Shown here piece after piece: positions 4,015 to 62,900 of a DNA stretch of 64,000 bases. Position 1 is the stretch's first letter. Each line of letters begins with the position of its first letter. The position numbers and the translations under genes are program-made. The stretch lies in IMG/VR virus record IMGVR_UViG_3300006310_000001. One strand, 5' to 3'. The notes under the pieces were generated by a model. It did not search any database. It was not told the origin of the DNA and saw nothing but the letters and a program-made list of their open reading frames with translations. This DNA is from a virus.

Positions 4015-4025
4015 AGTATGTATAT

Positions 4026-29205: not shown

Positions 29206-29210
29206 ATAGT

Positions 29211-30044
29211 CTACTCGTCAATTTCCCCGAATGGATTTCTTTCTGTAAAGTCAAGTATATCATCCGCTGTTGAAACAGTATCATATCCTGCTTCTTTATT
29301 CAAGTCTAAATTATCTGCATATGGAGATTGTGTCTGTATATTAGACTCTGTAAAATCTTCGTTCATTAAAAGTGCTGGTTGACCAGTTGAATAATCGTGA
29401 TAACTTTCTAATTGTACTGAACCTGCACCTGTCATAACTTCTTGTCCATATTCTAAAGTAAACTTATATGCTAATTGGTCTAGTGTATGTGTATCTTCGT
29501 GTGAGTCAATAGTAGATAAACCAGTATCAAGTTTTTCACTTGAATATTCCCAACGAGTTACTTTTAATTTATAAACTGGCAGATTGCCTAATTGGAAAAA
29601 TGGTTCTTGGTCTTCTACAAATAAAATTTCAAAAAAAGATTTCATCAAAGGCACATATATAATATCACCTTCGTTTGGTCTTCCTGTAACTGATAAAGAA
29701 GAACCAACCTGTGTTGCCTTATTACCAACTAAATTTGTCCAACTTCTTTTTGAAACCATTAATGATGTATCATCACGAATTTCTAATCCAAACTTACTTA
29801 TGATTTCTTGTTCACCAGCAAATCCTGTATTATTTTCAAAATACATTTCTATCAAATAAGAATCATCAAATCTACTAGATACATCTTCTCCTAGTATTAA
29901 ATCTTTATTGACTAATGTTCGTGGTAAGTAGTAGACATCCTGACCGTAAATTTTAAGACCTTCAACTATTATATCTTCGTGTAGTCTTTGTTCGGCAGCA
30001 TTACCTATGCCTTTTCCACCTTGAAAGTAATGATTAACTGGCAT
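29211..30044 (-). CDS. gp14: Neck protein
   Basis: EQRLHEDII, GQDVYYLPR, SKFGLEIRD, PNEGDIIYVP, FTERNPFG. Confidence 0.92.
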   Translation of the reverse strand: MPVNHYFQGGKGIGNAAEQRLHEDIIVEGLKIYGQDVYYLPRTLVNKDLILGEDVSSRFDDSYLIEMYFENNTGFAGEQEIISKFGLEIRDDTSLMVSKRSWTNLVGNKATQVGSSLSVTGRPNEGDIIYVPLMKSFFEILFVEDQEPFFQLGNLPVYKLKVTRWEYSSEKLDTGLSTIDSHEDTHTLDQLAYKFTLEYGQEVMTGAGSVQLESYHDYSTGQPALLMNEDFTESNIQTQSPYADNLDLNKEAGYDTVSTADDILDFTERNPFGEIDE

Positions 30045-30048
30045 AGCA

Positions 30049-30870
30049 TTATCCTATCATAAAAGGTTGCGGTTCTTCAAACTCGCTTCTTAATTTTATT
30101 TCCAATTTATCCAAATCTTCTAGTGCTTCACTATAAATTTGTTTACCGTTTAATGTAACTCCACCAAGCATTGCAACACCATCAAACTTACTTAAATTGG
30201 CTCCCCATTGTTTTTTAAATAAAGCAGTTACGTATCTTTTTAACCAAATATCATTAAAGACATCTGTATATGTGTTAGGGTCTAATTTTCTCCAGCATTC
30301 TATTACAAGAAATTCATCTACTTGTAAATCATTTTTCCAATCCATATCAACATAAAGTCTATTATCTAATTGGTTAAATCTATAAGGTTTTTCTCCGACT
30401 AATATATGGTCTAAAAAATCTAAATGTCTTAATACAACATCATAGTTAATAACAGACGTTGAAGAAAAATCATATAGGTCATTTAATCTTAATTGATATC
30501 TAACATCAAATAAATTTAAATTACCTTTATTTGAAAATGGAAAAATGTTAATTACAGATATAACAGATTCAGGACATACAATATACTGATTGCCTTCTTT
30601 CCATTCTGTATTTACTACAGAAGAATCACCATATGTTTTAGATTCAGTTTCAGTACTATCTGCTAAAATTCTAGCTTTATCTGCCGCTGTATACTTGTAT
30701 TTTAAATAGGTTCTTTTAACACCATCATAGTGGTATTGAGCAAAATATTGTAATGCTTCATCAAGTCTATCTTCCAGTTGGTCGTCATCAACGTTGATTT
30801 CAATTACTGGTTTACCTAATGCTCTTAAAGCGTATTGTTTTACTGTTTCTCTGGATGCTGGTTCTGCCAT
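30049..30870 (-). CDS. gp13: Neck protein
   Basis: YALRALGKPVIEINVDDDQLEDR, WLKRYVTAL, QWGANLSKF, GGVTLNG. Confidence 0.92.
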   Translation of the reverse strand: MAEPASRETVKQYALRALGKPVIEINVDDDQLEDRLDEALQYFAQYHYDGVKRTYLKYKYTAADKARILADSTETESKTYGDSSVVNTEWKEGNQYIVCPESVISVINIFPFSNKGNLNLFDVRYQLRLNDLYDFSSTSVINYDVVLRHLDFLDHILVGEKPYRFNQLDNRLYVDMDWKNDLQVDEFLVIECWRKLDPNTYTDVFNDIWLKRYVTALFKKQWGANLSKFDGVAMLGGVTLNGKQIYSEALEDLDKLEIKLRSEFEEPQPFMIG

Positions 30871-47801: not shown

Positions 47802-47821
47802 TATTTATACAGGTATAAATA
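47802..47821. promoter_or_regulatory. Back-to-back divergent late promoters
   Basis: TATTTATA-CAGG-TATAAATA: TATAAATA on both strands, forming a 9-bp inverted repeat. Confidence 0.8.
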
Positions 47822-47851
47822 ATAATGTTACATATTAAAAGGAGAATATTT

Positions 47852-48181
47852 ATGAGTTTCTGGACACTAATTACATACACCAGACCAAATACTGATACGG
47901 AGTGGTATCAAGTTAATGATGAAGCAAAAGCATATATAGAAAGCTTAAAAGCAGATGATGGAGCTAATCCATCTATTATATCTTACGAAAAGCTTGAGTC
48001 AAATGATGGTTTAAAGCAATATTATAAATTAAATTACAAAGATGGAGCAACTGCCGATTTATTACAAGAAAGTGATATAGGAGTTGCTAATGAAACTGCT
48101 AGAGAAAACTATTGCTCAAGTAATAATATAGTATTTACTGAGGAACTAGTTGGTGAAACTGAACCTTCAGTTACGCTTTAA
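47852..48181 (+). CDS. 109-aa acidic hypothetical protein on the opposite strand
   Basis: AAAGGAG SD before the ATG at 47852 (MSFWTLITYTRPNTDTEWY...); own late promoter. Confidence 0.75.
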   Translation: MSFWTLITYTRPNTDTEWYQVNDEAKAYIESLKADDGANPSIISYEKLESNDGLKQYYKLNYKDGATADLLQESDIGVANETARENYCSSNNIVFTEELVGETEPSVTL

Positions 48182-48745
48182 TTCACGGTAAGGTAAATTA
48201 AAATTTTTATAACCATCAACGTCTAAAATTGCAACATTTTGCCAGCAAAAAATATCGTTTGGATTTTCATCAACATTTTGATTACAGGTAAAGTACATTT
48301 TAGGCAACAGCACTAATTTGTGTTTGTGATTAATATTCCACCTCTTTATCATCTTTTTCATAGCAGCTCTTCTTTTAATACCAGCTATTGAAAAGAAAGG
48401 TATCAAGTTTTTTTCTAACGCTATTTTTATATGTAAAGGTAATAAATGAGTTGTAGCAATTCCACCTGTTTGATAAGAATTCAATGTATTACTTCTTACC
48501 TTTTTAAAATAATAACATCTATCTAATACTCTTACAAAATTAGAAGGCCAAAATTTACTTTGAAACATTCCTGCCATTGCAATAACTTCATTTTCATATT
48601 CTACAATATGATAATTTAAATAATTTGATAGTCTTCTATCAAAATTGTGAAAATTATGATAAGAGTCTTTTACTGCTTTAGATGATAATTTAGATAATGT
48701 ATCTTTATCATTTAAAACATTTTTTATATTAATATCCGCCTTCAT
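48167..48745 (-). CDS. GNAT-like fold hypothetical protein
   Basis: YHIVEYENEVIAMAGM...VRVLDRCYYFKKVR strand/helix pattern resembles acyltransferases. Confidence 0.4.
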   Translation of the reverse strand: MKADINIKNVLNDKDTLSKLSSKAVKDSYHNFHNFDRRLSNYLNYHIVEYENEVIAMAGMFQSKFWPSNFVRVLDRCYYFKKVRSNTLNSYQTGGIATTHLLPLHIKIALEKNLIPFFSIAGIKRRAAMKKMIKRWNINHKHKLVLLPKMYFTCNQNVDENPNDIFCWQNVAILDVDGYKNFNLPYRELKRN

Positions 48746-49658
48746 TTGCTACCACGTGTTCAAAGAAAGGTGCAACTTTAAAATCAGGTGTTAATCTACC
48801 TCTTCTAGTTTGACCTGCAAAAGGTATTTTACCGCCATTGCCTTTCCAATTTGCTATTTTAAACCATATACCACTTTTATGTAATAGTTTACCTTCTTGT
48901 TCTTTTTTTAATGGAAAAATAAAACTATCTATTTCTGGTTCGGTGTTTTGATAGATAGGTTTGTTTCGCCACGATTCAATATAATCTACGCTAAGACCAG
49001 TTTGTTTACTTGCCAACCCTATCAAATCATCCATAGTATAATTTCCACTTTCATTATCATACATACTTCTACCAAGATTGCCTACATTTTTTATTCTAGC
49101 CATTACATTTTTAACTTCTAATCTTTCAAACATAGATAATAGTCTACTTATTACATCATCATTAATACCTTTTACAATAATTGTTCCTGTGTCAATAAGA
49201 AATTTATTATTTTTTAAATTTTCAAGAGCTTTTACTTTTTTAGTAGCACATCTTAACTCATCTATTTTCTCATACCAATCATCATTATCAGCACCATTCA
49301 TACTAATATAACAATGTGTTAAACCGTGTTGTTTTAAAGTTTTTACATATGAGTCATTTGCTAATCTTAAACCGTTTGTAATTAAAGTACACCTATGACC
49401 AGTTTTTTTAATAAGAGTTATCATTTCTGGTAAATCTTTACGCATAGTTGGTTCTGCACCAATAATTCGTATCATTGTTTTTTTAGGAAACTTTTTAATT
49501 GCCTCTAACATTTTGTTAATATCCATATCAGGTATTTCTCTATTTGGAATATAACAATTCTTACAATTCATATTACATCTATGTGTAACATCAATTACAA
49601 CATCTTGAAAAATGTTATTTTCAGGTTCTAGCTCGTAATAATTTGGTATTGTTTTCAT
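48729..49658 (-). CDS. Radical SAM enzyme without an obvious SPASM domain
   Basis: DVTHRCNMNCKNCY (CX3CX2C), IGAEPT, LITNGLRL. Confidence 0.85.
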   Translation of the reverse strand: MKTIPNYYELEPENNIFQDVVIDVTHRCNMNCKNCYIPNREIPDMDINKMLEAIKKFPKKTMIRIIGAEPTMRKDLPEMITLIKKTGHRCTLITNGLRLANDSYVKTLKQHGLTHCYISMNGADNDDWYEKIDELRCATKKVKALENLKNNKFLIDTGTIIVKGINDDVISRLLSMFERLEVKNVMARIKNVGNLGRSMYDNESGNYTMDDLIGLASKQTGLSVDYIESWRNKPIYQNTEPEIDSFIFPLKKEQEGKLLHKSGIWFKIANWKGNGGKIPFAGQTRRGRLTPDFKVAPFFEHVVANEGGY

Positions 49659-50166
49659 TAATCTCCATTTTTCCTAACAATGCAATTCTTTTATCTTTGT
49701 TAATATTGTATACCGAATGGTGATAAGCGGAGTTAATAAACCAAACCTCTCCTTCACGCATTATAATTTTATTTTTTTTTGAAATAAATTCGTGTTCGCC
49801 TTTTAACATAACAATTAATCTATAATAATAAGGGTTATCTAAATGTTCAGGTATATTTGATTTTTTTTCTAATTCTGCATATCTCCAATCAGATTTATCT
49901 ATAAAATTTTTTAAGCATTCTATATCAATATTAAAGTAATCTATATGCCTTTGATTATAAGTTTTTCCTGCTGGTGTTAAATAATTATGTTCTACACCAT
50001 ACACACCCTTTCTATTATTAATAGCACGTTCATTACTTATAGGTGTTTTATCAACATCTTTTAATAGAGATAATCTTTTACTTTCTTCAATATTACCAAG
50101 ATTAATAACTTCAGGAAGTTTTTTTAATCTAGCGTATTGGCGAAGAGTTTTTATATCTGTTTTCAT
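49621..50166 (-). CDS. Asp/Asn beta-hydroxylase-like 2OG-Fe(II) oxygenase
   Basis: IPEHLD, RLIVML, GEVWFINSAYHHSVYN, RIAL. Confidence 0.65.
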   Translation of the reverse strand: MKTDIKTLRQYARLKKLPEVINLGNIEESKRLSLLKDVDKTPISNERAINNRKGVYGVEHNYLTPAGKTYNQRHIDYFNIDIECLKNFIDKSDWRYAELEKKSNIPEHLDNPYYYRLIVMLKGEHEFISKKNKIIMREGEVWFINSAYHHSVYNINKDKRIALLGKMEINENNTKLLRART

Positions 50167-50711
50167 ATAAACAATTCTCCCTTTTGGTCTAATTCTGCCA
50201 ATTTTTCTATTGAATCATAAAAACATATTTGAAAAGTATATCTTGCTTTTTCACTTTTATTATCAACACTATGATTATTTCTAGTTGTAATGATTAAAGG
50301 TTTCTCTTTATAATATACAGCTTCATTAAAAGTTTCATCTTCATTATAATATTTTATGGGAGAAAAATCTTTTAATTCTGGATATAATGCCCAAGTAATA
50401 CAAGACGTTCTTCCAAGGTGGTCATCTTTATGAATACCATAGTTATTGTTACCTATTCCAGTTCCATCATTTGGAGCAAACTTCATAAAAACTGCTATAA
50501 AAAAATTCAATTTAGGGTTGGTCTTATTAATCATTTTTTTAACCAAACCTACTATAGGAACAGCTCCTTTGTATGTACTAACAACTTGTATTCCTGTAGG
50601 TGTTCCTTTATAAGTTTTATAATTTTCATAATTATAACTCATTGCTTCAGACAAAAGTTGCTTTCTTTCATCAATACTTATTATATCATTTATACATTGG
50701 TATGAGTTCAT
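50163..50711 (-). CDS. 2OG-Fe(II) oxygenase-like protein
   Basis: IHKDDHLGRTSCITW...TRNNHSVDN...RYTFQI. Confidence 0.55.
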   Translation of the reverse strand: MNSYQCINDIISIDERKQLLSEAMSYNYENYKTYKGTPTGIQVVSTYKGAVPIVGLVKKMINKTNPKLNFFIAVFMKFAPNDGTGIGNNNYGIHKDDHLGRTSCITWALYPELKDFSPIKYYNEDETFNEAVYYKEKPLIITTRNNHSVDNKSEKARYTFQICFYDSIEKLAELDQKGELFI

Positions 50712-51332
50712 TTAACTACTCATCATATTATGTAATATTAAATCAGTAGATTTTTCTGTTAAGATAGTATTTGCTACTATAAACATTGATTCTTGTTTAC
50801 TTGTAAATACTATATGTTCTTTAGCAGTATTTAAAAAATATAATCTTCCGTATTCAAAATTCAAAACTTTATTATCTAAAATAAAATAATTATATGGTGG
50901 ATTACAATTATAGATTGGAACAAATAATCTACACGTTGGTAATTCTCTATCAAAATGGTCTCTATGAGATGGAAATTGTCCACCCGCTGACATCTTAATA
51001 ATATGAGTTCTTCCTAAATGATTTTTAAATTTTGATAATACTGATTCAACATAAGGCCAAAAGGGGGTTAGAGTTTTAAAATCTGGTTCATTAAGTTTTA
51101 AATTATTTTCTCTATTATATTCTTTTATTGAATCCAAATCTGGTATGCCAGAAAAATTACCATCCAAACTAGTAATACTTAAACCATACCTAGCAATCTT
51201 TTTTCTAGGATTATATTGAACCCATTTATCATCAAATAATTTTAAACCTTCCTCAAATATTTTATACTTTAAATTACAATTCAAAGGAATAAGGTCGCCA
51301 TATCTTGCTATTGTGTCATATAAGTAACTCAT
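50712..51332 (-). CDS. Asp/Asn beta-hydroxylase-like 2OG-Fe(II) oxygenase
   Basis: GGQFPSHRD, RLFVPI, GRLYFLNTAKEHIVF. Confidence 0.65.
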   Translation of the reverse strand: MSYLYDTIARYGDLIPLNCNLKYKIFEEGLKLFDDKWVQYNPRKKIARYGLSITSLDGNFSGIPDLDSIKEYNRENNLKLNEPDFKTLTPFWPYVESVLSKFKNHLGRTHIIKMSAGGQFPSHRDHFDRELPTCRLFVPIYNCNPPYNYFILDNKVLNFEYGRLYFLNTAKEHIVFTSKQESMFIVANTILTEKSTDLILHNMMSS

Positions 51333-51334
51333 AT

Positions 51335-52087
51335 TTAATTCGTTCTCCTATTATCTTCAATATATTTCTTTACTTCATATTGAGGTTCCCAACCATAACT
51401 TGTCATTGCGTCTATGTTTGCTTTGTTGTCAAGTCTTTCAGTATCACCACCAACTCTTTTTTCAGGAGTAATTCCAAAGTAGTCCATCATATCAGTTAAC
51501 TTATTTGTAATACCTGTTCCTATATCTATTGCACCTGTCTTTTCAGGAAATGCTGTAATTGATTTTTGTCTTAATATAGATTCAATCGCTGAACAAATAT
51601 CATACACGTGTATAAAATCTCTACTATGATTTGTATTAACATATGGCACATCATTTTTTAAAATTTTTGGTATCAACATAGTATCTCTTGCACCTGGTCC
51701 ATATACAGTAGTAAATCTCATACCTAAACTATTTGCAGGAGCAATTTGTTCCATACTATACTTACTCATTGCATAAGGATTTCTCCAGGGTTCATATGCA
51801 GTACTTGAACTTGCATACAAAATTCTTGTATCTTTAAAATAGTCAAATATTCTTTGACTTACGATAACGTTTTGTTTCCAATAGTCTGTAGGATTTTCAA
51901 AACTTTGTCTGACACCAGATAGACCTGCCAGATGTACAACACAATCAACATCATATTTTAAATCACAGGTAAGTAATTCTTTACCTGTATTACGGTCTAA
52001 ACCAATTACATCAAAATGTTTTTCTGATAACCATACTGAAAGATTTTTACCAATAAATCCATCACTACCTGTTAATAATATCTTCAT
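51335..52087 (-). CDS. NAD-dependent nucleotide-sugar epimerase/dehydratase
   Basis: TGSDGFIG, VVHLAG, YASSS, PYAMSK (YxxxK), RFTTVYGP. Confidence 0.85.
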   Translation of the reverse strand: MKILLTGSDGFIGKNLSVWLSEKHFDVIGLDRNTGKELLTCDLKYDVDCVVHLAGLSGVRQSFENPTDYWKQNVIVSQRIFDYFKDTRILYASSSTAYEPWRNPYAMSKYSMEQIAPANSLGMRFTTVYGPGARDTMLIPKILKNDVPYVNTNHSRDFIHVYDICSAIESILRQKSITAFPEKTGAIDIGTGITNKLTDMMDYFGITPEKRVGGDTERLDNKANIDAMTSYGWEPQYEVKKYIEDNRRTN

Positions 52088-52650
52088 AATCCTATCACCA
52101 TATATCTTTCATACTTATCCAATTTTAAAGTGCCCCTATATAATACCTTTTCTAATTTTAAACTCTTCTCAAATTCTACTACACTATTATGACAATTAAT
52201 ATGCTCGTCAATTGAAAAATAATTATTTGATTGAAATATAACTAACGATCCTTTCTTTCTTCTCTTTAAAAAATCATCTATTAAATGTTGACCAAGATGT
52301 TCGCAAGAAGTACATATAACTATATTAAATCTTTTAATATCATAATACTTTACATCTGCTTCTGTAAATGTAATATCTTTATAAAGTCTTTGCCCAATCT
52401 TTTTACACATTAGGTCTTTATCAAAGGAAACAATCTCTCCTTTAGTATATTCTTTTAGCTTATTTGCTAAATGCCCATACCAACCTGCCGCTATAACTAC
52501 AGAAGGAGAATTAAAAAAGCTAAAGTATTTCGTTGACTTCTCTATAAGCCAATCTTTACTTTTCTCTTGATTTTCGTTTAGTGAATTTATAATAGACTTG
52601 ACCAGTCTATCCGTGGTCACTCCATCAATCACTTTTAATATAGTATCCAT
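52084..52650 (-). CDS. Class I SAM-dependent methyltransferase-like protein
   Basis: VVIAAGWYG glycine loop, SFDKD, IVICTSCEH. Confidence 0.55.
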   Translation of the reverse strand: MDTILKVIDGVTTDRLVKSIINSLNENQEKSKDWLIEKSTKYFSFFNSPSVVIAAGWYGHLANKLKEYTKGEIVSFDKDLMCKKIGQRLYKDITFTEADVKYYDIKRFNIVICTSCEHLGQHLIDDFLKRRKKGSLVIFQSNNYFSIDEHINCHNSVVEFEKSLKLEKVLYRGTLKLDKYERYMVIGL

Positions 52651-52657
52651 AATCTTT

Positions 52658-52682
52658 AATAAATAGTCTAGTATTATTTATA
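52658..52682. promoter_or_regulatory. Crossed divergent late promoters between the two arms of the island
   Basis: TATAAATA on the minus strand (52675-52682) and the variant AATAAATA on the plus strand (52658-52665); AATAAATA also occurs at the gene junctions 36250 and 44217. Confidence 0.65.
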
Positions 52683-53560
52683 TGAGTATGAAAAGAGCAA
52701 TTTACAGTATCTACATTGATGTGCCAGCGAAAGAGCATTATGGTAAATCAAAGCATAGAAAAGACACAGCAGAAAAGGCAATCATAACCGTTAATGCATT
52801 TAAAAAGCACTATAAAAGGTTAATTGAATCCAAACGCAACTATGCTGACACCATAGGTGCAACTTTTATTATGTTTGAATATGATAAACGTTATCAAACC
52901 TTTGAAAAAAATCTACGTAAAGACTTTCCAGAATTAACAGGTTATGAAATTGTAAATTTTTACAAGATACATTTACTATATGAACTAGCAAAAAAATATG
53001 ATGAAATTTTATATTTAGATTTTGATGCTGTACCTGTAACCAAAGATTCCTTTTTTGATATATGGGATATACAAAATCATATTGCTGTTTATAATAACAA
53101 TACTATGATTAATAAAATGATGATGAGTATAGATGAAATTAAACACGGCATTAGAAGTCCAACAGCAAAGTATTTTAATTGTCAAGCAATGCTTATAGAG
53201 AAAGGACTTGATCCTAAAAATGATGTTATCAATACTGGTATCATTGGTGCTTCAAAAGAACAAATTTTAAAATTAGATTTCTTTGGTGATTTTAAAGATA
53301 CAATAGATTTAATGACAAAATTAAGAAATGATAAAGATGGTATGTATCCACAAAATATTATTGATATGTTTAGATATGATAATGAAACAATCTTTTCATA
53401 TAAAGTAAATATAAATAAAATTGGTATACAATGGTTAGATAGAAGGTGGCATTACTTCTTTGATAGTCAACATTTTATACCAAAAGAAACAAAAATAGTA
53501 CACGCTGTCTGCAAAGACTTTGACGCCGTATGGAGATATGATGAAAAATATAATCTATAG
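52682..53560 (+). CDS. GT-A-fold glycosyltransferase-like protein
   Basis: YKIHLLY, ILYLDFDAVP (DxD), INTGIIG, WHYF, IVHAV. Confidence 0.65.
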   Translation: MSMKRAIYSIYIDVPAKEHYGKSKHRKDTAEKAIITVNAFKKHYKRLIESKRNYADTIGATFIMFEYDKRYQTFEKNLRKDFPELTGYEIVNFYKIHLLYELAKKYDEILYLDFDAVPVTKDSFFDIWDIQNHIAVYNNNTMINKMMMSIDEIKHGIRSPTAKYFNCQAMLIEKGLDPKNDVINTGIIGASKEQILKLDFFGDFKDTIDLMTKLRNDKDGMYPQNIIDMFRYDNETIFSYKVNINKIGIQWLDRRWHYFFDSQHFIPKETKIVHAVCKDFDAVWRYDEKYNL

Positions 53561-54398
53561 TATATACATAGAAAATAATGAACCTAATTTAAGTGAAAAA
53601 CATCAATTCACTAAAATACAATTAGCAAAACACTATCAAAAATTAATAGATGTTAAGAAAGAATATGCTAAGCATTGTAATGCTGAATATAGACTTTATG
53701 AAAACGACACCTATTGGCAAAAATTTAAAAAGAAATTTAGTGGTTATCAATTTGATATAATCAATCTATACAAGATACATATATGGGAAAAACTAGGTGA
53801 AGAATTTGACAATGTTCTTTATTTTGATTTTGATGTAGTACCAAATACAACTGAATCCTTTTTTGAAAAGTTTGATATGAATAAGATATGTGTTCACGCT
53901 CCCAATGCAACTAAAGAAAATATATGGAGTACAAGCGCATTAAAACGTTATAAGAAACAAATAAACACATATGAGGAAATAGTTAGCAATTTTGATGGAT
54001 ATAGTATGTACGTTAAAGCTATTGCTAAAAAATCAATGTTAGCATTAGATAACAATTTTGATACGGATTATTTAATAGCAAATACAGCTATATTAGGTGG
54101 CAATTCAAATGCTATAAAACAATTAAAATATACAGAAAAATTAGATGAACTTTTAGATGTTTTATATACAGCAAAAAAAGAAAAACTATTTGGAGAAGAA
54201 ATATCAAAACAATTTTTTCCTAACAATGAAGTCTTTTTCCATTATCTATTAGACAAGTATAATATAAATTGGTATAATATACCTAAAGAATGGCACACTT
54301 ATGTAATGCCAGAAGATGAACACACTAAAGAATTAAAATCTGCTAAACTAATACATTTAATTAGTAAGAAATTTGAAAAGTTATGGGAGATAATATAA
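53520..54398 (+). CDS. GT-A-fold glycosyltransferase-like protein, paralogue of the upstream gene
   Basis: YKIHIWE, VLYFDFDVVP, ANTAILG, NNEVFF, EWHTY, LIHLI. The true start is probably the ATG near 53538 after GGAG. Confidence 0.65.
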   Translation: MTPYGDMMKNIIYSIYIENNEPNLSEKHQFTKIQLAKHYQKLIDVKKEYAKHCNAEYRLYENDTYWQKFKKKFSGYQFDIINLYKIHIWEKLGEEFDNVLYFDFDVVPNTTESFFEKFDMNKICVHAPNATKENIWSTSALKRYKKQINTYEEIVSNFDGYSMYVKAIAKKSMLALDNNFDTDYLIANTAILGGNSNAIKQLKYTEKLDELLDVLYTAKKEKLFGEEISKQFFPNNEVFFHYLLDKYNINWYNIPKEWHTYVMPEDEHTKELKSAKLIHLISKKFEKLWEII

Positions 54399-55519
54399 TG
54401 TGGATATTTCCTATTGATTTAAAACTTGATATTACAACTAGATGTAATGCTGGATGTCCTCAATGTCATAGAACAAACTTAACTGGATTAAAAGCACACG
54501 AATGGTTACCAGATATTGTATGGTCTTTAGACCAATTTAAAAGAGCTTTTCCTGTACAAGTTGCTAAACACATTTATAATTATAATATTTGTGGTACGTG
54601 GGGAGACCCTTTAACAAATAATGACTTACTAGATATAGCAAGATATATTAGACAAGTAAATCCAGAAGCACATATTTCTATTAATACAAATGGTTCATTA
54701 AGAAATGAAGATTGGTGGTGGGAGTTTGGATCAATAGGAGGTAAAAACCTACACGTTGTTTTTGCTGTTGAAGGCACCACACAAAAAATGCACGAAAGAT
54801 ATAGACAGTTTACTTTTTTGGATAAAATTTTAAAAAATATGGAGATGTTATCTAACACTCCAGCAAGAATACGAGTTGATACTTTAGTATGGAAACATAA
54901 TGAAAATCATTTAGATGAAATTGAAAAATTAGTTATGGATCACGGAGCAACCAAACACAACAGAATTTTAACTGACCGTTGGGAAGGTCGTAATGAAATG
55001 ACTTTTTTTACTGGAAAAGAAACTGCAAGTTTAGAAAAAGCTGGTGTTGATTTTTCAAAAGAAGAAGAGACCTATAACAAACGTGAAGCAGATTGTTTTA
55101 CAGATGATGAAGGTAGAGAAAAAAAAGTTGGTGACTTTACTAAACAAACAACAAAATTAACAGTACTAGATAGTAAAATGGTTAAAAAAATAAGAAAAGA
55201 AAAAAAAGAAATAATAGATATAACTTGCAAATGGCAAAAAGCAAATAAACTTGAAATTGAATCAAGTGGTCAAGTTTTACCTTGCTGTTATTTCTCTAAT
55301 CCTTATTTTTTAGATGAACACAATCCTTCTAAAGAAAGTGATTTTATGAAACATCCAGTTATGAAAGAATATGAAAAATATAAAAAAGAACTTAATATTT
55401 TTACTTCTAGTTTACTAGATATAATAAATCATAAATGGTATACAGAAACATTACCTAATAGTTGGAATGATGTTAATGCTGTATGGCAATGCCAAAGACA
55501 TTGTGGAAAGTGTAAATGA
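54383..55519 (+). CDS. Radical SAM enzyme with a C-terminal SPASM/twitch-like Cys domain
   Basis: DITTRCNAGCPQC, CGTWGDP, INTNGS, GQVLPCCY, CQRHCGKC. Likely start is the ATG at 54398 (TAATG). Confidence 0.85.
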   Translation: MGDNIMWIFPIDLKLDITTRCNAGCPQCHRTNLTGLKAHEWLPDIVWSLDQFKRAFPVQVAKHIYNYNICGTWGDPLTNNDLLDIARYIRQVNPEAHISINTNGSLRNEDWWWEFGSIGGKNLHVVFAVEGTTQKMHERYRQFTFLDKILKNMEMLSNTPARIRVDTLVWKHNENHLDEIEKLVMDHGATKHNRILTDRWEGRNEMTFFTGKETASLEKAGVDFSKEEETYNKREADCFTDDEGREKKVGDFTKQTTKLTVLDSKMVKKIRKEKKEIIDITCKWQKANKLEIESSGQVLPCCYFSNPYFLDEHNPSKESDFMKHPVMKEYEKYKKELNIFTSSLLDIINHKWYTETLPNSWNDVNAVWQCQRHCGKCK

Positions 55520-56286
55520 TATACGATTTCTCAAATAGAAAAATTAATATAGACTCTAGTCATAAGTGTCCTTTAGAGTGTCCTAAATGTCAAAGACAAG
55601 CAATAAGAAGAACTGGACATCCAGTACCTGGACAAGATATGCCGTGGGATGATTTTATAAAAATTGCTAATTACTTTGAAAAGGGACTACTTTTTTGTGG
55701 TCAAATATCAGACCCTACTGCTAATCCTTTATTGATTAATATGTTAAAATATTGTTACAAAAAAAATATTCCAGTAACGATTAATACAGCATCCACACAC
55801 AAACCTGTAAAATGGTATGAAAAGGCATTTGAAGCAAACCCTAAAGGAGTTTGGTTGTTTGGTATTGATGGTCTACCTAAAGATAGTCACAAATATAGAA
55901 TTCATCAAGATGGTGAAAAATTATTTGAAATGGCAAAGTTATGTGCTAAAAAATGTAAAACTTCTGTTTGGCAATATATTGTTTTCAGATATAATGAATA
56001 TGATATAGAAGAAGCAAGAAGTATGGCAAAGGCAAACAATATTGAATTTGATTTAGTTTTTTCAGGTCGTTGGCATTACGGTGGTGACAAATATAAACCT
56101 AGAAATCCAAATTACTATGTTAACCGTTATAATGATGATTTACGAATGTTTAAAAATATAAAAAATAAAGGTTATAAAGATTGGAAAGTAGCATTAGATG
56201 AATTAAAAGATGAAAGATTTTTTAAAAATACACATAGTCCTAAAAAAACAATTTTATCAACTAGGAAAATAAATGAAAAAGATTAA
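55516..56286 (+). CDS. Radical SAM enzyme lacking a SPASM domain
   Basis: DSSHKCPLECPKC, CGQISDP, FGIDG, WQYIVFRYNE. Confidence 0.8.
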   Translation: MIYDFSNRKINIDSSHKCPLECPKCQRQAIRRTGHPVPGQDMPWDDFIKIANYFEKGLLFCGQISDPTANPLLINMLKYCYKKNIPVTINTASTHKPVKWYEKAFEANPKGVWLFGIDGLPKDSHKYRIHQDGEKLFEMAKLCAKKCKTSVWQYIVFRYNEYDIEEARSMAKANNIEFDLVFSGRWHYGGDKYKPRNPNYYVNRYNDDLRMFKNIKNKGYKDWKVALDELKDERFFKNTHSPKKTILSTRKINEKD

Positions 56287-57358
56287 TCCAAAATGTTTAT
56301 CGTTTAAAGAACTTTCTTATACAGCAACTGGTTATATAATGCCTTGTTGTTGGGTAGACACTCCTATAGCTTTAATAGAACCTCAAATAGCAAGATTAAG
56401 ACAAAAACATTTAAAACTTGCAAATAACGAAAAGATAGAAGATATTATTAATAGTAAAGAATGGAAAAACTTTTTTGAAGAATTAAAAACTAATCCAGCT
56501 ACACTTTGCCAAAGATTTTGTAGTGTACCTTTACATCATAGTGCTAATAGAGCAAGAGAAAACCCACACGACAAATACGCACTTACAGAAGATAGAAAAA
56601 CTAATATTAAAATATGTTGTGTTTATTTTGAAGGAAAATATTCACCTGATTATGTTGAAAAACTTTATAATGGATTAAAAAAATATTGTTTCCTACCATT
56701 TGAATTTATTTGTTATAGCGATAATCCAAATGTTAAAGCAGATAAAGTTATTCCTTTACCAAAAGATAGTAAAATAAAACGCCATTGGCATAAATTATCT
56801 TTCTTTAATCCAGAATTTATGGAACAAAATCCTAGAGATGAAATTATTATTATGGATATTGACCAGATTATTGTAAATAATATGGATGATTTAATAGGTT
56901 GGCCTGTAGTAGATAATGAATTAGTATCTTATGACAAATGGTGGGGATTACCAAAACCAAAAGTTCAAGGCGGTTTCTTTAAATTTAAATCTGGACAATG
57001 TAAAGTTATATGGGATACTTTTATAAAAGATCCAGAAAAATGGCAACTACATTATTATAATACAGGACAAGTACATTACAAATATTTTGGTGAACAAAAC
57101 TTTGTTGAAGATATAGCAACTAAAAATGATATAATAATATCTTTAGTTAAAGGTAAATGGATTGGTAAATATACTTTAGATAAAGAACAAAATTTAGAAA
57201 ATAATGTAGAGTATTGTAAAAGATTTGAAGAAGATTATATGATATTAGATAAACCACATCCTAATATAAAAATAGTACACTTTGCTGGACCCGAAACTGA
57301 TATACACTCTTGTAAAGAAGAATGGATTAAATCTTATTGGTATCTTCCCAAAGTTTAA
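56273..57358 (+). CDS. Fusion of an N-terminal SPASM-like Cys domain and a C-terminal glycosyltransferase-like domain
   Basis: PKC...GYIMPCCW...LCQRFC followed by CCVYFEGKYSPDYVEKLY, WHKLSFF, MDIDQII (DxD), GEQNF, IVHFAG. Confidence 0.7.
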   Translation: MKKINPKCLSFKELSYTATGYIMPCCWVDTPIALIEPQIARLRQKHLKLANNEKIEDIINSKEWKNFFEELKTNPATLCQRFCSVPLHHSANRARENPHDKYALTEDRKTNIKICCVYFEGKYSPDYVEKLYNGLKKYCFLPFEFICYSDNPNVKADKVIPLPKDSKIKRHWHKLSFFNPEFMEQNPRDEIIIMDIDQIIVNNMDDLIGWPVVDNELVSYDKWWGLPKPKVQGGFFKFKSGQCKVIWDTFIKDPEKWQLHYYNTGQVHYKYFGEQNFVEDIATKNDIIISLVKGKWIGKYTLDKEQNLENNVEYCKRFEEDYMILDKPHPNIKIVHFAGPETDIHSCKEEWIKSYWYLPKV

Positions 57359-57824
57359 TATAAATTTTAAGTGCTTCTAAAGGAGTTTTTGCTTTTCTAA
57401 TAGCAGATTTTGTACTTTGGTCTTTACAATTCTTTACTACATCTTGTTCAAACAAATATATTTTAAAATTGAATAAACGGTCTATATGTTCTTTCTTATT
57501 ACTTAAAAGAAAATCCATCATCAACTCAATAAATTTAGGATTAACCTCTTCTATTATATCTTTAATAAGACCTTCTTTTTGTGCTATATTTTTAATTTGA
57601 CTAATATAAGCTTTTCGTTCTTCTTGTTTTTTAGTATAAGTATTTTCGTGAAGTTGGTCTAAAGAACAAAGTTTTAATAACTCTTGACAATTTGGATTGT
57701 CAACATCATATTCAAGTATATGTGGATTGACTGCTGTTCCGTCATCACTTTTTAATAATACTTCAATATTTTTTCTTTCATTATCTATGAAATGTGCTGT
57801 TATAAAATTTTCTTCATTAATCAT
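57327..57824 (-). CDS. Hypothetical protein, possibly a fibre assembly factor
   Basis: 165-aa ORF with an AGGAG SD; its 3' end overlaps the plus-strand operon by 32 bp. Confidence 0.6.
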   Translation of the reverse strand: MINEENFITAHFIDNERKNIEVLLKSDDGTAVNPHILEYDVDNPNCQELLKLCSLDQLHENTYTKKQEERKAYISQIKNIAQKEGLIKDIIEEVNPKFIELMMDFLLSNKKEHIDRLFNFKIYLFEQDVVKNCKDQSTKSAIRKAKTPLEALKIYIKLWEDTNKI

Positions 57825-57840: not shown

Positions 57841-58770
57841 TTACGATTTTAATATTTTCAAATACCAAGTATTTGCTGTTGTAGGTGTACCATTTGGAAA
57901 CTCTTGCGCTCTATAATCATCTCCACCCGCTTGATGTGTTTGATAATCTCCTGTACCTGTCAGTATTGTATCTGCCATACCAGAACCTCTATTTACTCCA
58001 CTTGCATAACTATAAGTTATTTTATAACCATCTACTGAAGCAGCGGCAGTATATTTAATATGACTTGCTAATAATGTTTCAAAAGCAACTTCTGTAAAAT
58101 CTTGTAAATCATTTCCACCAGTTACATAAAGCGGACTTCTTGTTATAGTAGTATCAACACCATCTACTCTATGCAAATAATAACTTGCAATTGTTGTAGG
58201 TTGGTCTAAATCTTCAGGAATATCTCCAGCAGCATAAGCAGTTGTATCTGCTTGAGTATTTACATAAATTGGTGTTGCGTTAACTAAAGTAGAACCTGCA
58301 ACACTATTTGAAGCATTAATATGATATGTTCCAGCTTGTTCACTTGTTGTGGTCGCCGCTGTCAATAAATCAATAGCAGGATGTATAAATGTATCTTTAA
58401 CATCTTGTAAAGACATTGCTTGAATATCATTACCTGCTGTTCTATAGACAGGCCAACTTTTTCCTGAATCAGTTGGTGCTGAACCAGAGGTTACAGTTTG
58501 CTCTATTTTATCGTAAGTAATAGTTACCGTTGTAGGTTCTGGTGTTGTTGCTTCATTTGGAAATGCTGAAGCGTGTGTTAACATAGCACCCGCTTGTTGT
58601 CTTGTATCAGTTATTGATCCTACGTTTCCGCCAGAACCTACTACTGATAATACAACAGATGGTGTTTGTGAATATTGATAAATTGCTTGTGCTATTATTT
58701 GGTCTACTTCGGCAGAAGACATCTCTTTCAAATTGCCGCCGCTATAATATAAAGGAGCTCGTATAGCCAT
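57841..58770 (-). CDS. Probable virion structural protein with three internal repeats
   Basis: Repeats APLYYSGGNLKEMS / WPVYRTAGNDIQAMS / SPLYVTGGNDLQDFT; Thr/Ala-rich. Confidence 0.6.
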   Translation of the reverse strand: MAIRAPLYYSGGNLKEMSSAEVDQIIAQAIYQYSQTPSVVLSVVGSGGNVGSITDTRQQAGAMLTHASAFPNEATTPEPTTVTITYDKIEQTVTSGSAPTDSGKSWPVYRTAGNDIQAMSLQDVKDTFIHPAIDLLTAATTTSEQAGTYHINASNSVAGSTLVNATPIYVNTQADTTAYAAGDIPEDLDQPTTIASYYLHRVDGVDTTITRSPLYVTGGNDLQDFTEVAFETLLASHIKYTAAASVDGYKITYSYASGVNRGSGMADTILTGTGDYQTHQAGGDDYRAQEFPNGTPTTANTWYLKILKS

Positions 58771-58781: not shown

Positions 58782-59714
58782 CTATGTAGCACTACCAACA
58801 ATCGTCTTTTGCGCTACTCCCGCTGAATTGTAGATTACTAAAGTTGATGAAGATGTAAAAATAGTACCATCAGCATATCCTGTCGTATTAGTTAAAGCAA
58901 CTGTTCCTGTTGAGTCAGGTAATGTTACTATTCTTTCTGCTGTAGGGTCTGTAGGTCTTATATATGTTTTAAATGCGTCATTTGTTGCACCTTCAAAATA
59001 AATACCTAAATTGCTATTTGCACCTGTTAAGTAAATAGCCCCACTTGTTGTTATATTATTTGTTGATATATGACTACCACCAAAATTAACACTATCTCCT
59101 GTGCGAGCAGTAATAGTATTTGTTTTTAATCCACCTTCAATTTGAACATCATCATCAAAATGAAGTACAGTAGAATCTGTAGATGAAAATGTATTACCAA
59201 CTACTGAAACTGTTCCTAAAGTATTCGTCCCACCTGTAGTTGTAATAGTCGGCGCTGTGATATTATTTGCTTGTATGTCACCAGTTGTTATTATATGGTC
59301 ATCTCCAAAATCTATAGAACCACTTGAATCTGTAATAGAACCATTTGTTAAAGTTAAACTTCCTGCAGATACAATTGGAGCTGATAAAGAAGTAGTAATA
59401 TTAACAACATTTGTTAAACCAATTGTTAAAATATCTGGAACAGATACAACAGCAGTTGTTTGGTTTGAAACACCTTTAAATTGAGCAGTTTGACCTGCAC
59501 CAATTTGCTGTACAGTTGAAGAAGAATCTTCCATCTTCCAACCTTCAGCAGCAAAAATTTGACTAGCTAATTCATTAACTGCACCAATAACACTAGTTGC
59601 CGACATTGAAGGGTCTAAAGTTCCAATATCTCCAAAATCATTTAGACACATATCGTTAAAATTTGTTCTAAATTGTTCTAGTGTATCTGTTAATGCTATA
59701 TTTCTTACAGCCAT
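58782..59714 (-). CDS. Fibre-like virion protein
   Basis: TDTLEQFRTNFN N-terminus; Thr/Ser/Gly-rich; FEGATNDAF..PTDPTAERIVTLPD module. Confidence 0.6.
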   Translation of the reverse strand: MAVRNIALTDTLEQFRTNFNDMCLNDFGDIGTLDPSMSATSVIGAVNELASQIFAAEGWKMEDSSSTVQQIGAGQTAQFKGVSNQTTAVVSVPDILTIGLTNVVNITTSLSAPIVSAGSLTLTNGSITDSSGSIDFGDDHIITTGDIQANNITAPTITTTGGTNTLGTVSVVGNTFSSTDSTVLHFDDDVQIEGGLKTNTITARTGDSVNFGGSHISTNNITTSGAIYLTGANSNLGIYFEGATNDAFKTYIRPTDPTAERIVTLPDSTGTVALTNTTGYADGTIFTSSSTLVIYNSAGVAQKTIVGSAT

Positions 59715-59715
59715 T

Positions 59716-59937
59716 TTATTTTATAACCTTCTTAATTAAATCTTTTATTTCTCTTAATTCTTTCTTTAAATTATTTATCTCGGAACACATACCTCTTAAT
59801 TGGTCTGCATTCTCTTCTCTTTGTCTTATTCTTTTCATATAGATAGCATATTCATTACTTGTTCTTACTATAGCATTAGTACTTATATCTCTAACTAAAT
59901 TTGAGTGTCCTTCAACTTTCAATATTCCGTTTGCCAT
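59716..59937 (-). CDS. Conserved small hypothetical protein
   Basis: LKVEGHSNLVRDISTNAIV followed by a coiled coil. Confidence 0.6.
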   Translation of the reverse strand: MANGILKVEGHSNLVRDISTNAIVRTSNEYAIYMKRIRQREENADQLRGMCSEINNLKKELREIKDLIKKVIK

Positions 59938-59941
59938 TTTA

Positions 59942-62900
59942 TTATATCGCCAATGCTACTGTTCTCATATCTCTTACAATTGGAGGATATGATGAGATAG
60001 ACCCTTTCATTACTATTTTAATTTGTAAAGATGTAAATGGATTTAAACTAGCTACTGAATATTTGTATTCTCTAAATGTTGTGTCATCTTCAGCAGGTGT
60101 TACTGTTGTATCTTCCGAACCATCTGTATTAAATGGTGTCCAAGATAAATCTTCAATCTTTCTATCATCTTCTGGTCCTAATGTTCTATGATAAACTTGT
60201 ACTACTGAACTTGACCTAACATTTGAAGTCAATCTAACGTCTAAAGAAGTTGATGAATTTTCTAATACTACAGGTTTAGTTAAATAAAGAGCAGCTGTAG
60301 ATGAACCAGTTGAAGCAATATCATCAACAAAATCTGGTGTATTACCAGAAGTTGGATTATTTAATCTATTTGAAATCATAAAAGCACTCATTCGTTGTGT
60401 ATCTAAAACTGGTGAAACTTTTGTATTAGTAGTTAAAAGTTTTAAATTTAACCAAAAAGATTTTTGACCTGACATTTCATTTGTTTCATTTATTTCACTC
60501 ATTACAGCTTTTGGATTGTTAAAGTGTACATTTTCAGAATTAACAACAGCAACTTTATTTGCCGTTGAAGTTAAACTAAATTCTGATTCTGCACCGTGCA
60601 TTGATTGTCCAGTAGTTGGTCTAATATACCATTCAATACTTGTACCAGGTAATTTCATTGTTTGAACACCTGATAAATTCATTACATCATATTTTCTATT
60701 TTGTGTTGCAGTTACAGTATTGCTTCCAATATCACCAGTAGCAGTTGCTGTTCCAGCTGTTGTAATATCATAACTATCTAGGGTTACATTTGAAATACTT
60801 GTATATGTTCCATTTAAATCAGTATGAGCAATACCATTATAGGTACCAGCCGACACTCCTGCAATGGTCACATTATTTGATGTGCCGTGCATTCCGTGAT
60901 TTGGATGATAAACTCTAACTACACCTGAAGCATTTGTTGTTCGTAATGGATTAAGTTTAAGTGTTCTAGCAGGTAAAGTATTATTTGTCAACATAACATC
61001 TCCAGTTACATTTTCAAATTCTGCTCTCTTCAATGTAAATTTAATATCTTCGTTTTGTTCAGTTGTCCAAGTCACACCATTTTGTGATTTAAACATTACA
61101 CCAGCATATGGTTGTGCTGATATTGTTCTATCTGAACCTATTACAGTTTCTCCCAATCTACCAACATAACAATTGTAATCAGTTGAGTTTGCCATTAATA
61201 CAAAAGAATATTCTGTATTTTCTTGTACATAAACAGGACTTGCAAAAGTAAATGTAGTTTTAACTGTTGCGTCAGCACTTATATTAACTGAAGGTGGATT
61301 TAATGATACTTCACTAAACGGTAATATATTTTGTCCTGGATAACCATTTACAGTATTTCTAATTTGTAAAGTTAAAGGTACATTAGCGTCTTTAGAACTG
61401 AAAAATAAATCCATAGATGTTAAGAAAACACCTCCAGCGTCATCAATCATAAATGTTTGTGCTAATGGATCGTGATAACCAACTTGTCTAGCTGCCCCTC
61501 GTTGGACATCCGTTCTAGTTACATTTTCTGTTTCATTAGTTGCTCTAAATTCTATAGCAGCTGTTCTTGTAGAAATAATTGTATTTTGTACTGTTTCTAT
61601 AATACCTCTAGCAATATATTCAGCATTAGCAGCTGTATCTGGTGCTTGTGTTAAAACGTTTGTAGATGAACTTGTTAATCTAAAAATTCTTTGACCTGTT
61701 CGCCATCTTGGATTTGAATTTACTTTTGGATCAGGTATTGCAAAAGTTCCCGTTACAGCACCGTTAGCATCCGTGACAAGATTACCACCTAAAGAACCAC
61801 CATCTGGTGTTATGTAAGTAGATATATCATCACTATCAAAGAAAGCATAAACTCTTGTATTTGGTCTCATTCTTGTAGCAGTAAATGATACTGTTCTACT
61901 TCTAATAAACGGAACAAATGCTACACTTATAATTCTATCACCAATACTATTTGTTATTGTTTTTGGAACTATTACTTGTCTAATTCCTGCTCTTGTTCTT
62001 GTTCCAGTTTGAGTAGTTGTTTGGATATCTCTTTGCATTACTCTCCAACCGTGACCACCTCTTTGTTCAAAATTTTCTGTAGTATTAGTTGTTGATGTTC
62101 CAGTCCAATTATTTGTCCACTCGTTCCATACTGTACCTATCTCTACTTCTTGAAGATTTGGATTACCAGAAACAGCAACTAAAGTATCCCAAGTACCATC
62201 ATCATTTGTAATTGTTAATTCTGGTGCTCTTTCTGTTTCTTTCCATTCATCATTTGCTGGTGTTAATGCAATTGAACCTATCCAAGTAAATATTCCAAAT
62301 GGGTTAACATTAATTGATTTACTTGCATACGGTTGAGTTATTAAAGCAGTTTCACTATAAGGTAATGTAATTAAATCTCCAGTTTTTTGGTATTGTCCAT
62401 CCGTTCTATCAGCGGCAACAATAGCTGTACCATCACCATCACGTTCAATAAGTTGAATAGCATCCTCGTGGAATGTTGGTCTCATTTCACCTTTCGCCAT
62501 ATCCATTGAAACTTTATAATCTACATTTCCTGGGTCACCTATTGCGTGTCCTGTAAAATTATCTACAACAAATCCATTTTTAAATCTATCAAATCCATCA
62601 GCGTCTTGTATTTGTAATGTTTGAGCAGCAACTTCTAATAAAGACAATTGAGTATAATATTCAACATTTGTTATTCTTCTTTCTAAATGTCCAATATCTC
62701 TCATTGTATATCTTCGGTTGTCAACTGTTTCTATACTAACATCAGCTGTATCTAATCCATAACTTGGTAAAAATAAAGTGTACATATGCATAGCATTATC
62801 TAAAGAACCAGGAACATCTGGTGTTGCTGAACTTGCACCACTCAATACTTGAAATTTTCCAGCTGAATCTAAATATATTTTATCAACTCTTTGTAAATAA

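Follow-up and report, generated by a model that had tools for sequence, protein, structure and literature searches.

A conserved glycan-building-type gene module in the host recognition cluster of a marine pelagimyophage and its possible role in virion decoration

The host recognition cluster (HRC) of pelagimyophages is a named, hypervariable genome region, in which cassettes of GT8 glycosyltransferase and radical SAM genes have been noted and interpreted as serving host O-chain modification (Zaragoza-Solas 2020, PMC7029224). Phage-encoded glycosylation of virions has a precedent in mycobacteriophages (Freeman 2023, as cited in PMC12801897). Here, we describe a divergent island of 13 open reading frames (ORFs), named I01 to I13, at positions 47825-57358 of a 64,000-nucleotide stretch of viral DNA (IMG/VR record IMGVR_UViG_3300006310_000001; hereafter, the window). 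An earlier note, made from the sequence alone, had proposed that this island encodes a complete and undescribed pathway for the decoration of virions. The source phage is a Mosig-like, T4-type marine pelagimyophage: its prohead core protein shares 71% identity with the counterpart in Pelagibacter phage Mosig EXVC030M (Kyanoviridae), and more distant matches come from HTVC008M, Melnitz methylophages, and cyanomyophages. The island is located inside the HRC of this T4-like SAR11 myophage, which extends from VrlC to the neck gene gp14 and here holds tail-fiber genes together with variable nonstructural genes (GT8, radical SAM). Its limits are a VrlC-like baseplate gene (59942-63808; 62.7% identity to Mosig_00100) and gp13-, gp14-, and gp15-like neck genes recognized by PHROG at 28402-30870, where the Ad2 (gp13) family matches 30049-30870 and the Hc2 (gp14) family 29211-30044.

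The HRC of Mosig (MT647606.1) occupies the same place, between VrlC and the gp13/gp14-like neck genes (29211-30870 in the window). As in the HRCs described in PMC7029224, fiber genes are mixed here with genes for GT8 enzymes and Asp/Asn beta-hydroxylases and with cassettes of radical SAM genes. The island type is already part of this published region, and the description as an undescribed system could therefore not be upheld. Mosig shares orthologues of I06, I07, I08, I09, I12, a SPASM piece, and the glycosyltransferase (GT) domain of I13, as well as of two neighboring genes, o165 and o309 (named after their length in amino acids). Unlike the window, it is devoid of I01-I05, the second GT8 gene (I10), and I11.

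Comparison with relatives revealed that the island is a composite of a conserved core and a variable left arm (47825-51332). The survey was anchored on o309, which is carried by 272 IMG/VR contigs, and 34 dereplicated loci with at least 8 kb of downstream sequence were counted. Among these, o165 was present in 33, an I13-type GT in 32, the epimerase (I07) in 31, GT8 (I09) in about 30, and the gene for an S-adenosylmethionine (SAM)-fold protein (I08) in 27; an I12-type radical SAM gene was found within 10 kb in 18. True orthologues of I10 and I11 are confined to few lineages; those of I11 were seen in some of the close relatives and, among distant phages, in L010, L012, and L104. The core follows o309-o165 in about 30 of the 34 relatives and in six distant phages. 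In the structural operon of most relatives, including Mosig, o309 and o165 flank the epimerase gene, and the SAM-fold gene, GT8, and GT converge on them. The six distant contexts (L010/L011, L012, L102, L104, L106, and L107) show an o309-like gene (31-42% identical), then an o165-like gene, followed by GT and GT8; L105 contains the start of the same pattern and is too short to reach GT8. In L104, whose VrlC is only 30% identical, all genes of the module, among them a split pair of I11-type radical SAM and SPASM, run co-directionally between baseplate and fiber genes. Overall, the core stays together over VrlC identities of 30-87%, in several gene orders and strand arrangements.

By contrast, each of the genes I01-I06 was found in only zero to three of the 34 relatives (I01 in one), and these genes are rare, exchangeable cassettes. 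The earlier note had considered that gene content at this locus might be random among relatives. Since the core recurs in 27-33 of 34 relatives and in distant phages, this does not apply to the core, whereas the left arm indeed looks random. A "complete pathway" of 13 genes is likewise not supported: the left-arm genes are mostly missing elsewhere. Moreover, o165 and o309, which are partners of the core, fall beyond the 13-gene range. What remains of the proposal is a coherent glycan-building-type module, which is supported by the conserved core and is probably expressed late.

None of 50,697 GenBank phage records matched the island in a megablast search, and the nearest IMG/VR record searched (G001), a fragment of 38 kb, aligned weakly at just two places of ~50 bp and is uninformative on the island. 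In tblastn searches of GenBank phages, the I13 GT domain, I09, and o309 matched only Mosig, and I11 matched only Mosig and, weakly, radical SAM cores of Campylobacter phages. This pattern indicates lineage restriction and says nothing on function. A GT8 profile searched against 185,579 species genomes returned nine loci; seven with a recognizable GT8 are mis-binned pelagimyophage fragments, and two are too short to be placed. The GT8 family thus appears to have no close cellular homologue among these genomes. Seven short contigs with module genes (L093-L099: PAFP01000047.1, NZZP01000019.1, NYWG01000172.1, NYWC01000079.1, NZAX01000088.1, CAXGTL010000039.1, and PAHC01000009.1), four of which also carry o309, bear metagenome-assembled genome labels such as Pelagibacter, Gammaproteobacteria, Verrucomicrobiales, Flavobacteriaceae, Woesearchaeota, and Rhodobiaceae, and look like binning contamination by pelagimyophages.

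Both divergent junctions of the island carry gp55-type promoter motifs, as had been claimed (Table 1). The motif TATAAATA lies shortly upstream of genes, as is characteristic of T4-type late (gp55) promoters, and the plus-strand motif at the I08|I09 junction, AATAAATA, agrees with it at seven of eight positions. At this junction, [TCA]ATAAATA is kept on both strands and at the same positions in 10 of 11 distinct junctions of relatives, and the motif pair is palindromic in Mosig. A block of ~49 bp with the palindromic pair is duplicated in tandem at the corresponding junction of L098 (668-766). The total of 19 copies of TATAAATA in the window is not above that of shuffled sequence (15.2 +/- 4), but 13 of the 19 are found in intergenic DNA, which makes up 3.4% of the window, 6-95 nt ahead of start codons. 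A scan for sigma-70-like sites gave 90 versus 79 +/- 10 expected, which is not above chance. Judged from these motifs, the island is probably expressed late.

Eleven of the 13 family assignments made earlier were supported; the exceptions are a GNAT call and one 2-oxoglutarate (2OG) oxygenase call in the left arm (see below). I07 had been called a nucleoside diphosphate (NDP)-sugar epimerase. In agreement with this, it passes the Pfam search (Table 1), contains both motifs of the short-chain dehydrogenase/reductase (SDR) family, GxxGxxG (GSDGFIG) and YxxxK (YAMSK), and matches phrog_540 (7.8e-46); among solved structures, MoeE5 and GalE are the closest relatives. For I08, the presumed methyltransferase, a profile of 21 homologues recovered a SAM-dependent fold, with matches to spermidine synthases at 2.6e-5 and to methyltransferases at 0.003-0.02. 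A distant homologue matches PF05175 at 0.0012, and motif I of I08 is an atypical GGWYG. The fold is therefore supported, and both methyl and aminopropyl transfer would fit I08. The two GTs predicted for the right arm were also recovered: I09 scores above the GT8 cut-off, and I10 is its paralogue, although no Pfam match was obtained for I10 alone. The DxD motif (D113 and D115 in I09) is invariant across 22 sequences, I10 paralogues included. The likely start of I10 is ATG 53538 or 53541, not TTG 53520. Searches of PDB with sequence profiles were empty for the GT8 family and for the GT domain of I13.

Radical SAM enzymes were assigned by a CX3CX2C motif and a score above the 29.5-bit cut-off of Radical_SAM (PF04055). 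I03, I11, and I12 all qualify, which bears out the calls of one such enzyme in the left arm and of one with (I11) and one without SPASM domain (I12) in the right arm. The remaining right-arm protein, I13, had been described as a SPASM-GT fusion. Its GT domain could be confirmed, and its N-terminal piece is SPASM-like. In its GT domain, D195, I196, and D197 (DID 195-197) are invariant and the model has a pLDDT >90. Foldseek placed it among retaining GT-A folds with E-values of 7e-8 to 6e-7 and a probability of 1.0 (TM 0.33-0.48 by query length, identity 8-16%). The matches are GT6 blood-group transferases GTA/GTB, glycogenin, Streptococcus GlyE, LARGE1, and the catalytic domain of UGGT. They thus include protein-glycosylating enzymes (glycogenin, GlyE, UGGT, LARGE1) as well as the glycan-acting GT6. 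The modeled fold would suit either a protein or a glycolipid acceptor. The N-terminus of I13 is homologous to the SPASM domain of I11 (BLASTP E 6e-5); it scores 17.3 bits with PF13186, under the cut-off of 21.5, and residues 1-107 form a low-confidence part of the model.

This SPASM piece, which belongs to an I12-type enzyme, occurs in three states. It is a separate ORF of 105-136 amino acids in Mosig and at most loci. In L008 and L052, it forms one protein with the I12-type radical SAM core, whereas the window and its close relatives have it joined to the GT. A frameshift artifact behind the I12/I13 split was considered and rejected, since relatives keep the split with other junction geometries and show alternative fusions. 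With its SPASM piece forming part of I13, I12 appears to be tied physically to the last transferase, and the three states suggest that the radical enzyme is functionally linked to this transferase.

The islands of relatives add genes for a DegT aminotransferase and a NodU-type carbamoyltransferase, neither of which is present in the window. A DegT-type gene directly followed by a radical SAM gene, plus a NodU-type gene, was observed in Mosig (L003, 20095-22150), L107 (13550-19020), and L106 (8758-10086). The combination of a DesI/DesII-like DegT-radical SAM pair with NodU suggests amino- and carbamoyl-sugars in those lineages, and the added genes point to sugar tailoring rather than to the chemistry of ribosomally synthesized and post-translationally modified peptides (RiPPs). 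In L010, a phage contig of 100-216 kb, an IscA-type Fe-S assembly gene (PF01521) and a Cpn10 gene lie a few kb from the module (3413-5153); they may support the maturation of radical SAM enzymes.

The two genes to which the core is linked encode proteins of no known family. For o165, which is helical, the PDB sequence-profile search was empty and the ESM Atlas gave viral hypothetical clusters only. The AlphaFold model of o309 is of good confidence (pLDDT 83, pTM 0.82) and shows three internal alpha/beta repeats. No Foldseek match was found in PDB or BFVD; the best VIA-align Z was 4.1, and we treat the matches to this model as noise and not as proof of a new fold. The o309 profile recovered 739 clusters at 50% identity among 1.84 billion proteins, and no Pfam domain was detected in the extensions of the longer family members. 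The o309-o165 pair is duplicated in tandem in L102. In L010, the o309 domain forms the N-terminus of an 824-amino-acid protein, and two GT8s are fused. L082 (9003-19801), which represents a minority lineage, has a much shorter HRC without the enzyme module and without large fibers; there, co-directional genes of 398-641 amino acids directly follow o309, and their sizes resemble the neck and sheath region of the window.

Within the left arm, assignments are less uniform. I01 likely starts at ATG 47852, behind an AAGGAG Shine-Dalgarno sequence, rather than at 47825; it gave no Pfam or PHROG match and again adjoins I02 in L094 and L041. I02 had been called GNAT-like, for which we found no basis in profiles: no Pfam, PHROG, or NCBIfam match was obtained, and tblastn against the Mosig region, including its annotated N-acetyltransferase gene Mosig_00073, gave no match at E 1e-5. 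The sole lead is one ESM Atlas neighbor cluster, 20% of whose members carry Acetyltransf_1 (PF00583); the other neighbors are viral hypothetical clusters. I03 is paired with I02 in L024 and L041. Its nearest solved relatives are the cores of GDGT-MAS and MoaA; GDGT-MAS, a tetraether lipid synthase of archaea (7tol, E 2e-20), is the closest of all and is matched over the radical SAM core only. Three 2OG oxygenases had been proposed. This holds for I04 and, with some reservation, for I06, a probable Asp/Arg-hydroxylase-like oxygenase: it scores 15.1 bits with PF05118 (E 0.021), under the cut-off, and matches a beta-hydroxylase in PDB at E 0.04, but retains the metal-binding type triad and resembles Mosig_00081, which is annotated as such an enzyme. 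It is not supported for I05, for which only the HxD..H pattern, invariant among homologues, was seen: there was no profile match, the PDB sequence-profile search was empty, and hhalign to I06 gave a probability of 1.7%. I05 is possibly a cupin oxygenase.

The general description of the island proved accurate. All 13 genes are present and tightly coupled, with neighbors overlapping or abutting by 0-38 nt. The minus-strand left arm covers 48167-52650, the plus-strand right arm 52682-57358, and a lone plus-strand ORF 47825-48181. As predicted, these plus-strand units are the only convincing ones in the window, since all other plus-strand ORFs of at least 120 amino acids are nested in longer minus-strand genes. 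The higher AT content was confirmed as well: the GC content is 0.279 versus 0.327 in the rest of the window, the fourth lowest among 218 sliding 9.5-kb windows, and the GC skew changes sign across the right arm. No island protein contains a hydrophobic 19-residue stretch >1.2 (Kyte-Doolittle), and by this measure all look soluble. No flippase, polymerase, ligase, or lipid-carrier GT is found among the island genes. Ser and Thr account for 19-27% of the flanking structural proteins versus 7-16% of the island enzymes. A collagen-like substrate, on which hydroxylase and GT would act at collagen repeats, was considered and rejected, since no flanking protein has a GXY run >3. NCBIfam gave generic radical SAM matches only, all far under the cut-offs and with maturase families as the best ones, and Pfam at permissive E-values yielded no usable match for the island ORFs of no known family.

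Table 1 Features of the island and its neighbors (positions in the window)
Feature	Position	Strand	Remarks
Back-to-back late-type motifs	47802..47821	both	TATAAATA minus at 47802-09, plus at 47814-21
I01, 109-aa acidic protein, family-less	47852..48181	+	ORF opens at 47825; variable subcassette with I02
I02, 192-aa protein, family-less	48167..48745	-	Variable cassette
I03, radical SAM without SPASM domain	48729..49658	-	CNMNCKNC; Radical_SAM 2.8e-18, 67.1 bits; variable cassette
I04, Asp/Arg beta-hydroxylase-type cupin (2OG/Fe oxygenase)	49621..50166	-	PF05118 26.0 bits vs 22.6, 9e-6; HLD..H; variable cassette
I05, 182-aa protein	50163..50711	-	H94, D96, H147 invariant; variable cassette
I06, probable Asp/Arg-hydroxylase-like oxygenase	50712..51332	-	H123, D125, H173 invariant; 46% identical to Mosig_00081
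I07, short extended-SDR NDP-sugar 4-epimerase-like enzyme	51335..52087	-	Core gene; PF01370 2.4e-26, 93.1 bits
I08, class-I SAM-dependent (methyl)transferase-fold protein	52084..52650	-	Core gene
Divergent junction, 31 bp	52651..52681	both	Exact TATAAATA minus 52675-82; AATAAATA plus 52659-66
I09, GT8 retaining glycosyltransferase	52682..53560	+	PF01501 28.6 bits vs 24.3; core gene
I10, GT8 paralogue of I09	53520..54398	+	29-31% identical, DxD kept; subset of relatives only
I11, radical SAM with full SPASM domain	54383..55519	+	CNAGCPQC; Radical_SAM 37.3 bits; SPASM PF13186 24.8 vs 21.5
I12, radical SAM core without own auxiliary-cluster domain	55516..56286	+	CPLECPKC; 29.7 bits vs 29.5; semi-conserved
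I13, SPASM-like N-terminus (~residues 1-100) and retaining GT-A (residues 111-350)	56273..57358	+	GT domain is a core gene
o165, 165-aa helical protein, family-less	57327..57824	-	Beyond the range of the earlier note; always follows o309 (33/34 relatives)
o309, 309 aa, Ser/Thr-rich (22%), Cys-free	57841..58770	-	Structural operon; conserved module anchor; three internal repeats
Flanking structural genes	58782..63808	-	o310 (tail-fiber PHROG), 73-aa ORF, VrlC-like baseplate protein; upstream limit of HRC

Taken together, the reading we favor, with a probability of roughly 45%, is that the island serves the late, cytoplasmic decoration of a virion structural protein with a glycan. It is based on three observations: the module accompanies o309-o165 even in deeply diverged phages, it sits in late structural operons, and it has no close cellular counterpart. 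The 4-epimerase-like I07 would convert a host UDP-hexose or UDP-hexuronate, and two to three soluble retaining GT-A transferases (I09, I10, and the I13 GT) would add alpha-linked sugars in the cytoplasm. Their acceptor would be a coproduced virion protein, most likely the always-adjacent o309 or else the neighboring Ser/Thr-rich fibers. I08 could then methylate the product, and I11, as well as I12 with its SPASM piece, might tailor the sugar or the attachment site by a radical step. The left-arm cassettes (hydroxylase-type cupins, I03, I02, and I01) would make the decoration differ from one lineage to the next. What was observed are the gene families, their conserved linkage, the promoter motifs, and the lack of predicted membrane segments; the sugars involved, the sequence of steps, and the acceptor are what we infer.

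Several points weigh against virion decoration. Its late timing is deduced from the motif and not from transcripts, and related phages share the linkage in part by descent, so that it is not independent evidence. In L082-type relatives, o309 (60% identical) is present without the enzyme module. That o309 is a virion component is deduced from its operon position and from the 824-amino-acid fused form in L010. Moreover, bacterial GT8 enzymes mostly extend the lipopolysaccharide (LPS) core at the cytoplasmic membrane face, for which no phage membrane protein is needed, and characterized ones of the WaaI/J/O/R/T type are LPS-core transferases. The soluble GTs, the epimerase, and the methyltransferase might instead act on a lipid A-core or glycolipid precursor at the inner membrane face, and the altered SAR11 surface would block superinfection or keep progeny off debris. 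The published interpretation of the region is host O-chain modification (PMC7029224), and GT8-rich pelagimyophage HRCs and comparable cyanomyophage genes are read in the same way (PMC7029224; PMC12379486; PMC12801897). Remodeling of the host envelope would also agree with the Asp_Arg_Hydrox (a family including LpxO) and FA_desaturase genes of related islands, with the similarity of the I03 core to a lipid-tail-coupling enzyme (7tol, 2e-20), and with a hypervariable gene content, which suits an arms race at the cell surface. We regard it as the main alternative, less probable than virion decoration. It accounts neither for a GT8 family without close cellular homologue in 185,579 genomes nor for the strict linkage of the module to o309-o165 within a late structural operon; the motifs are of late and not of early type, with sigma-70-like sites not above chance; a surface change starting late would help exclusion little; and no export or ligation function is encoded in the island.

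The variability of the region raises the question of whether the 13 genes have a common product at all. A permissive insertion site in the hypervariable HRC, at which genes merely accumulate, would explain why the left-arm genes occur in so few relatives and move as subcassettes (I01-I02, I02-I03), and why Mosig has largely different enzymes at the same place. The low GC content resembles that of other nonstructural parts of the window, and structural variants in the HRC have been reported from natural populations (PMC12379486). This explanation fits the left arm but not the core, which is kept together over 30-87% VrlC identity in varied order and strand; in addition, there are domain fusions of the SPASM piece with the GT and of one GT8 with another, and the gene overlaps suggest translational coupling. 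For the island as a whole, we therefore regard a mere accretion hotspot as improbable. Maturation of a protein or peptide has still less in its favor. On this view, a ribosomal product (o309, I01, or a fiber) would be the substrate for crosslinking by the radical SAM/SPASM enzymes or for hydroxylation, in a RiPP/anSME-like manner, with the GTs being secondary. Most characterized SPASM enzymes do modify peptides or proteins, the best NCBIfam matches, albeit all far below the cut-offs, are maturase families, and the island includes a small acidic ORF with its own promoter motif (I01). However, this ORF is rare (1/34), the radical SAM genes are less conserved (18/34) than the GT, GT8, epimerase, and SAM-fold genes (27-32/34), and relatives add sugar-specific tailoring enzymes (DegT, NodU-type). 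Thioether crosslinking of o309 was rejected, since this protein is free of cysteine. The least probable alternative, to which we give almost no weight, is hypermodification of DNA, with GTs and tailoring enzymes decorating a modified base of the phage genome. T-even phages glucosylate hydroxymethylcytosine in their DNA, but the DNA glucosyltransferases of T4 are GT-B enzymes, whereas those of the island are GT-A/GT8. The cyanomyophage literature also raises DNA glycosylation as a possible role of phage GTs (PMC12801897). In the complete genome of Mosig, which is the closest relative in culture, a search for ThyA-family or hydroxymethylase homologues gave no match (PF00303, 0), with positive controls in 10 of 14 genomes. 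This speaks against DNA glycosylation, as do the late-type motifs and the position of the genes among tail genes.

Virion decoration can be put in a more specific form, which we think is unlikely as it stands. In this version, a radical SAM enzyme and a retaining GT, complexed via the transferred SPASM domain, would install a radically tailored, methylated alpha-glycan on o309. The latter, whose family of 739 clusters is widespread among T4-like phages of the sea, would be a baseplate- or fiber-associated protein of unrecognized fold, and hydroxylase and radical SAM cassettes would diversify the coat between lineages. If so, the phage would possess a glyco-code for adsorption or for evading recognition by host or grazer. 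We know of no virion glycosylation system with such oxygen-sensitive radical chemistry.

The myophages of SAR11, itself an abundant ocean bacterium, rank with the most numerous large phages of the sea, and the HRC is the part of their genomes that varies most between populations. If virions are decorated, host range and adsorption would depend on a phage-made glycan besides fiber sequence, the label of "cell-wall auxiliary metabolic gene" for such pelagiphage and cyanophage genes would need revision, and radical SAM/SPASM enzymes would join the toolset of viral protein glycosylation. If the host surface is altered instead, the strict linkage to o309-o165 would still need explaining. The core set (o309, o165, epimerase, GT, GT8, and SAM-fold gene, with or without radical SAM) is a small experimental target in the cultivable Mosig.

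How does the module compare to known systems? The published account of the HRC treats the region as non-syntenic and does not describe the o309-o165-epimerase-GT-GT8-SAM-fold core, the three SPASM states, or the bidirectional late-promoter junction (PMC7029224). Relative to the literature searched, three features appear to be new: a conserved core that is strictly paired with o309-o165, a SPASM piece that exists in three states, and a bidirectional late-promoter junction that is conserved.

In mycobacteriophages, Freeman and colleagues reportedly described in 2023 phage GTs that are encoded near structural genes and are thought to O-glycosylate virion proteins in the cytoplasm, with the glycan shown on virions. 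The gene position is alike, but these are siphoviruses of actinobacterial hosts with other GT families, and their glycan has been shown, whereas the window is known from its genes alone. To our knowledge, the mycobacteriophage systems include no radical SAM/SPASM enzyme, epimerase, or hydroxylases. Giant viruses provide a second comparison, with the multidomain GT/methyltransferase A064R of chlorovirus PBCV-1 and, in mimivirus, fibril glycans and the hydroxylase-glucosyltransferase L230. These are eukaryotic viruses with unrelated sequences and without radical SAM enzymes; as is proposed for the island, they use cytoplasmic GT-A, sugar-nucleotide enzymes, and a methyltransferase of their own to decorate capsid or fiber proteins. 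At the level of single enzymes, the GTs belong with the retaining GT-A enzymes of the GT8/GT6 clade (glycogenin, GlyE, LARGE1, GTA/GTB, and Waa enzymes of the LPS core): I09 passes the Pfam GT8 cut-off with its DxD, and the I13 GT matches in Foldseek at ~1e-7. For the radical SAM enzymes, comparable systems are sugar-acting SPASM/twitch enzymes such as BtrN and the DesI/DesII pair, in which a DegT-type aminotransferase participates. No specific sequence relationship to them was found (NCBIfam matches far below cut-offs), and the window has no DegT gene; what they have in common with the island is a sugar-tailoring gene context and a radical SAM core that is followed, toward the C-terminus, by a Cys-rich auxiliary domain, and in Mosig a DegT-type gene directly precedes a radical SAM gene.

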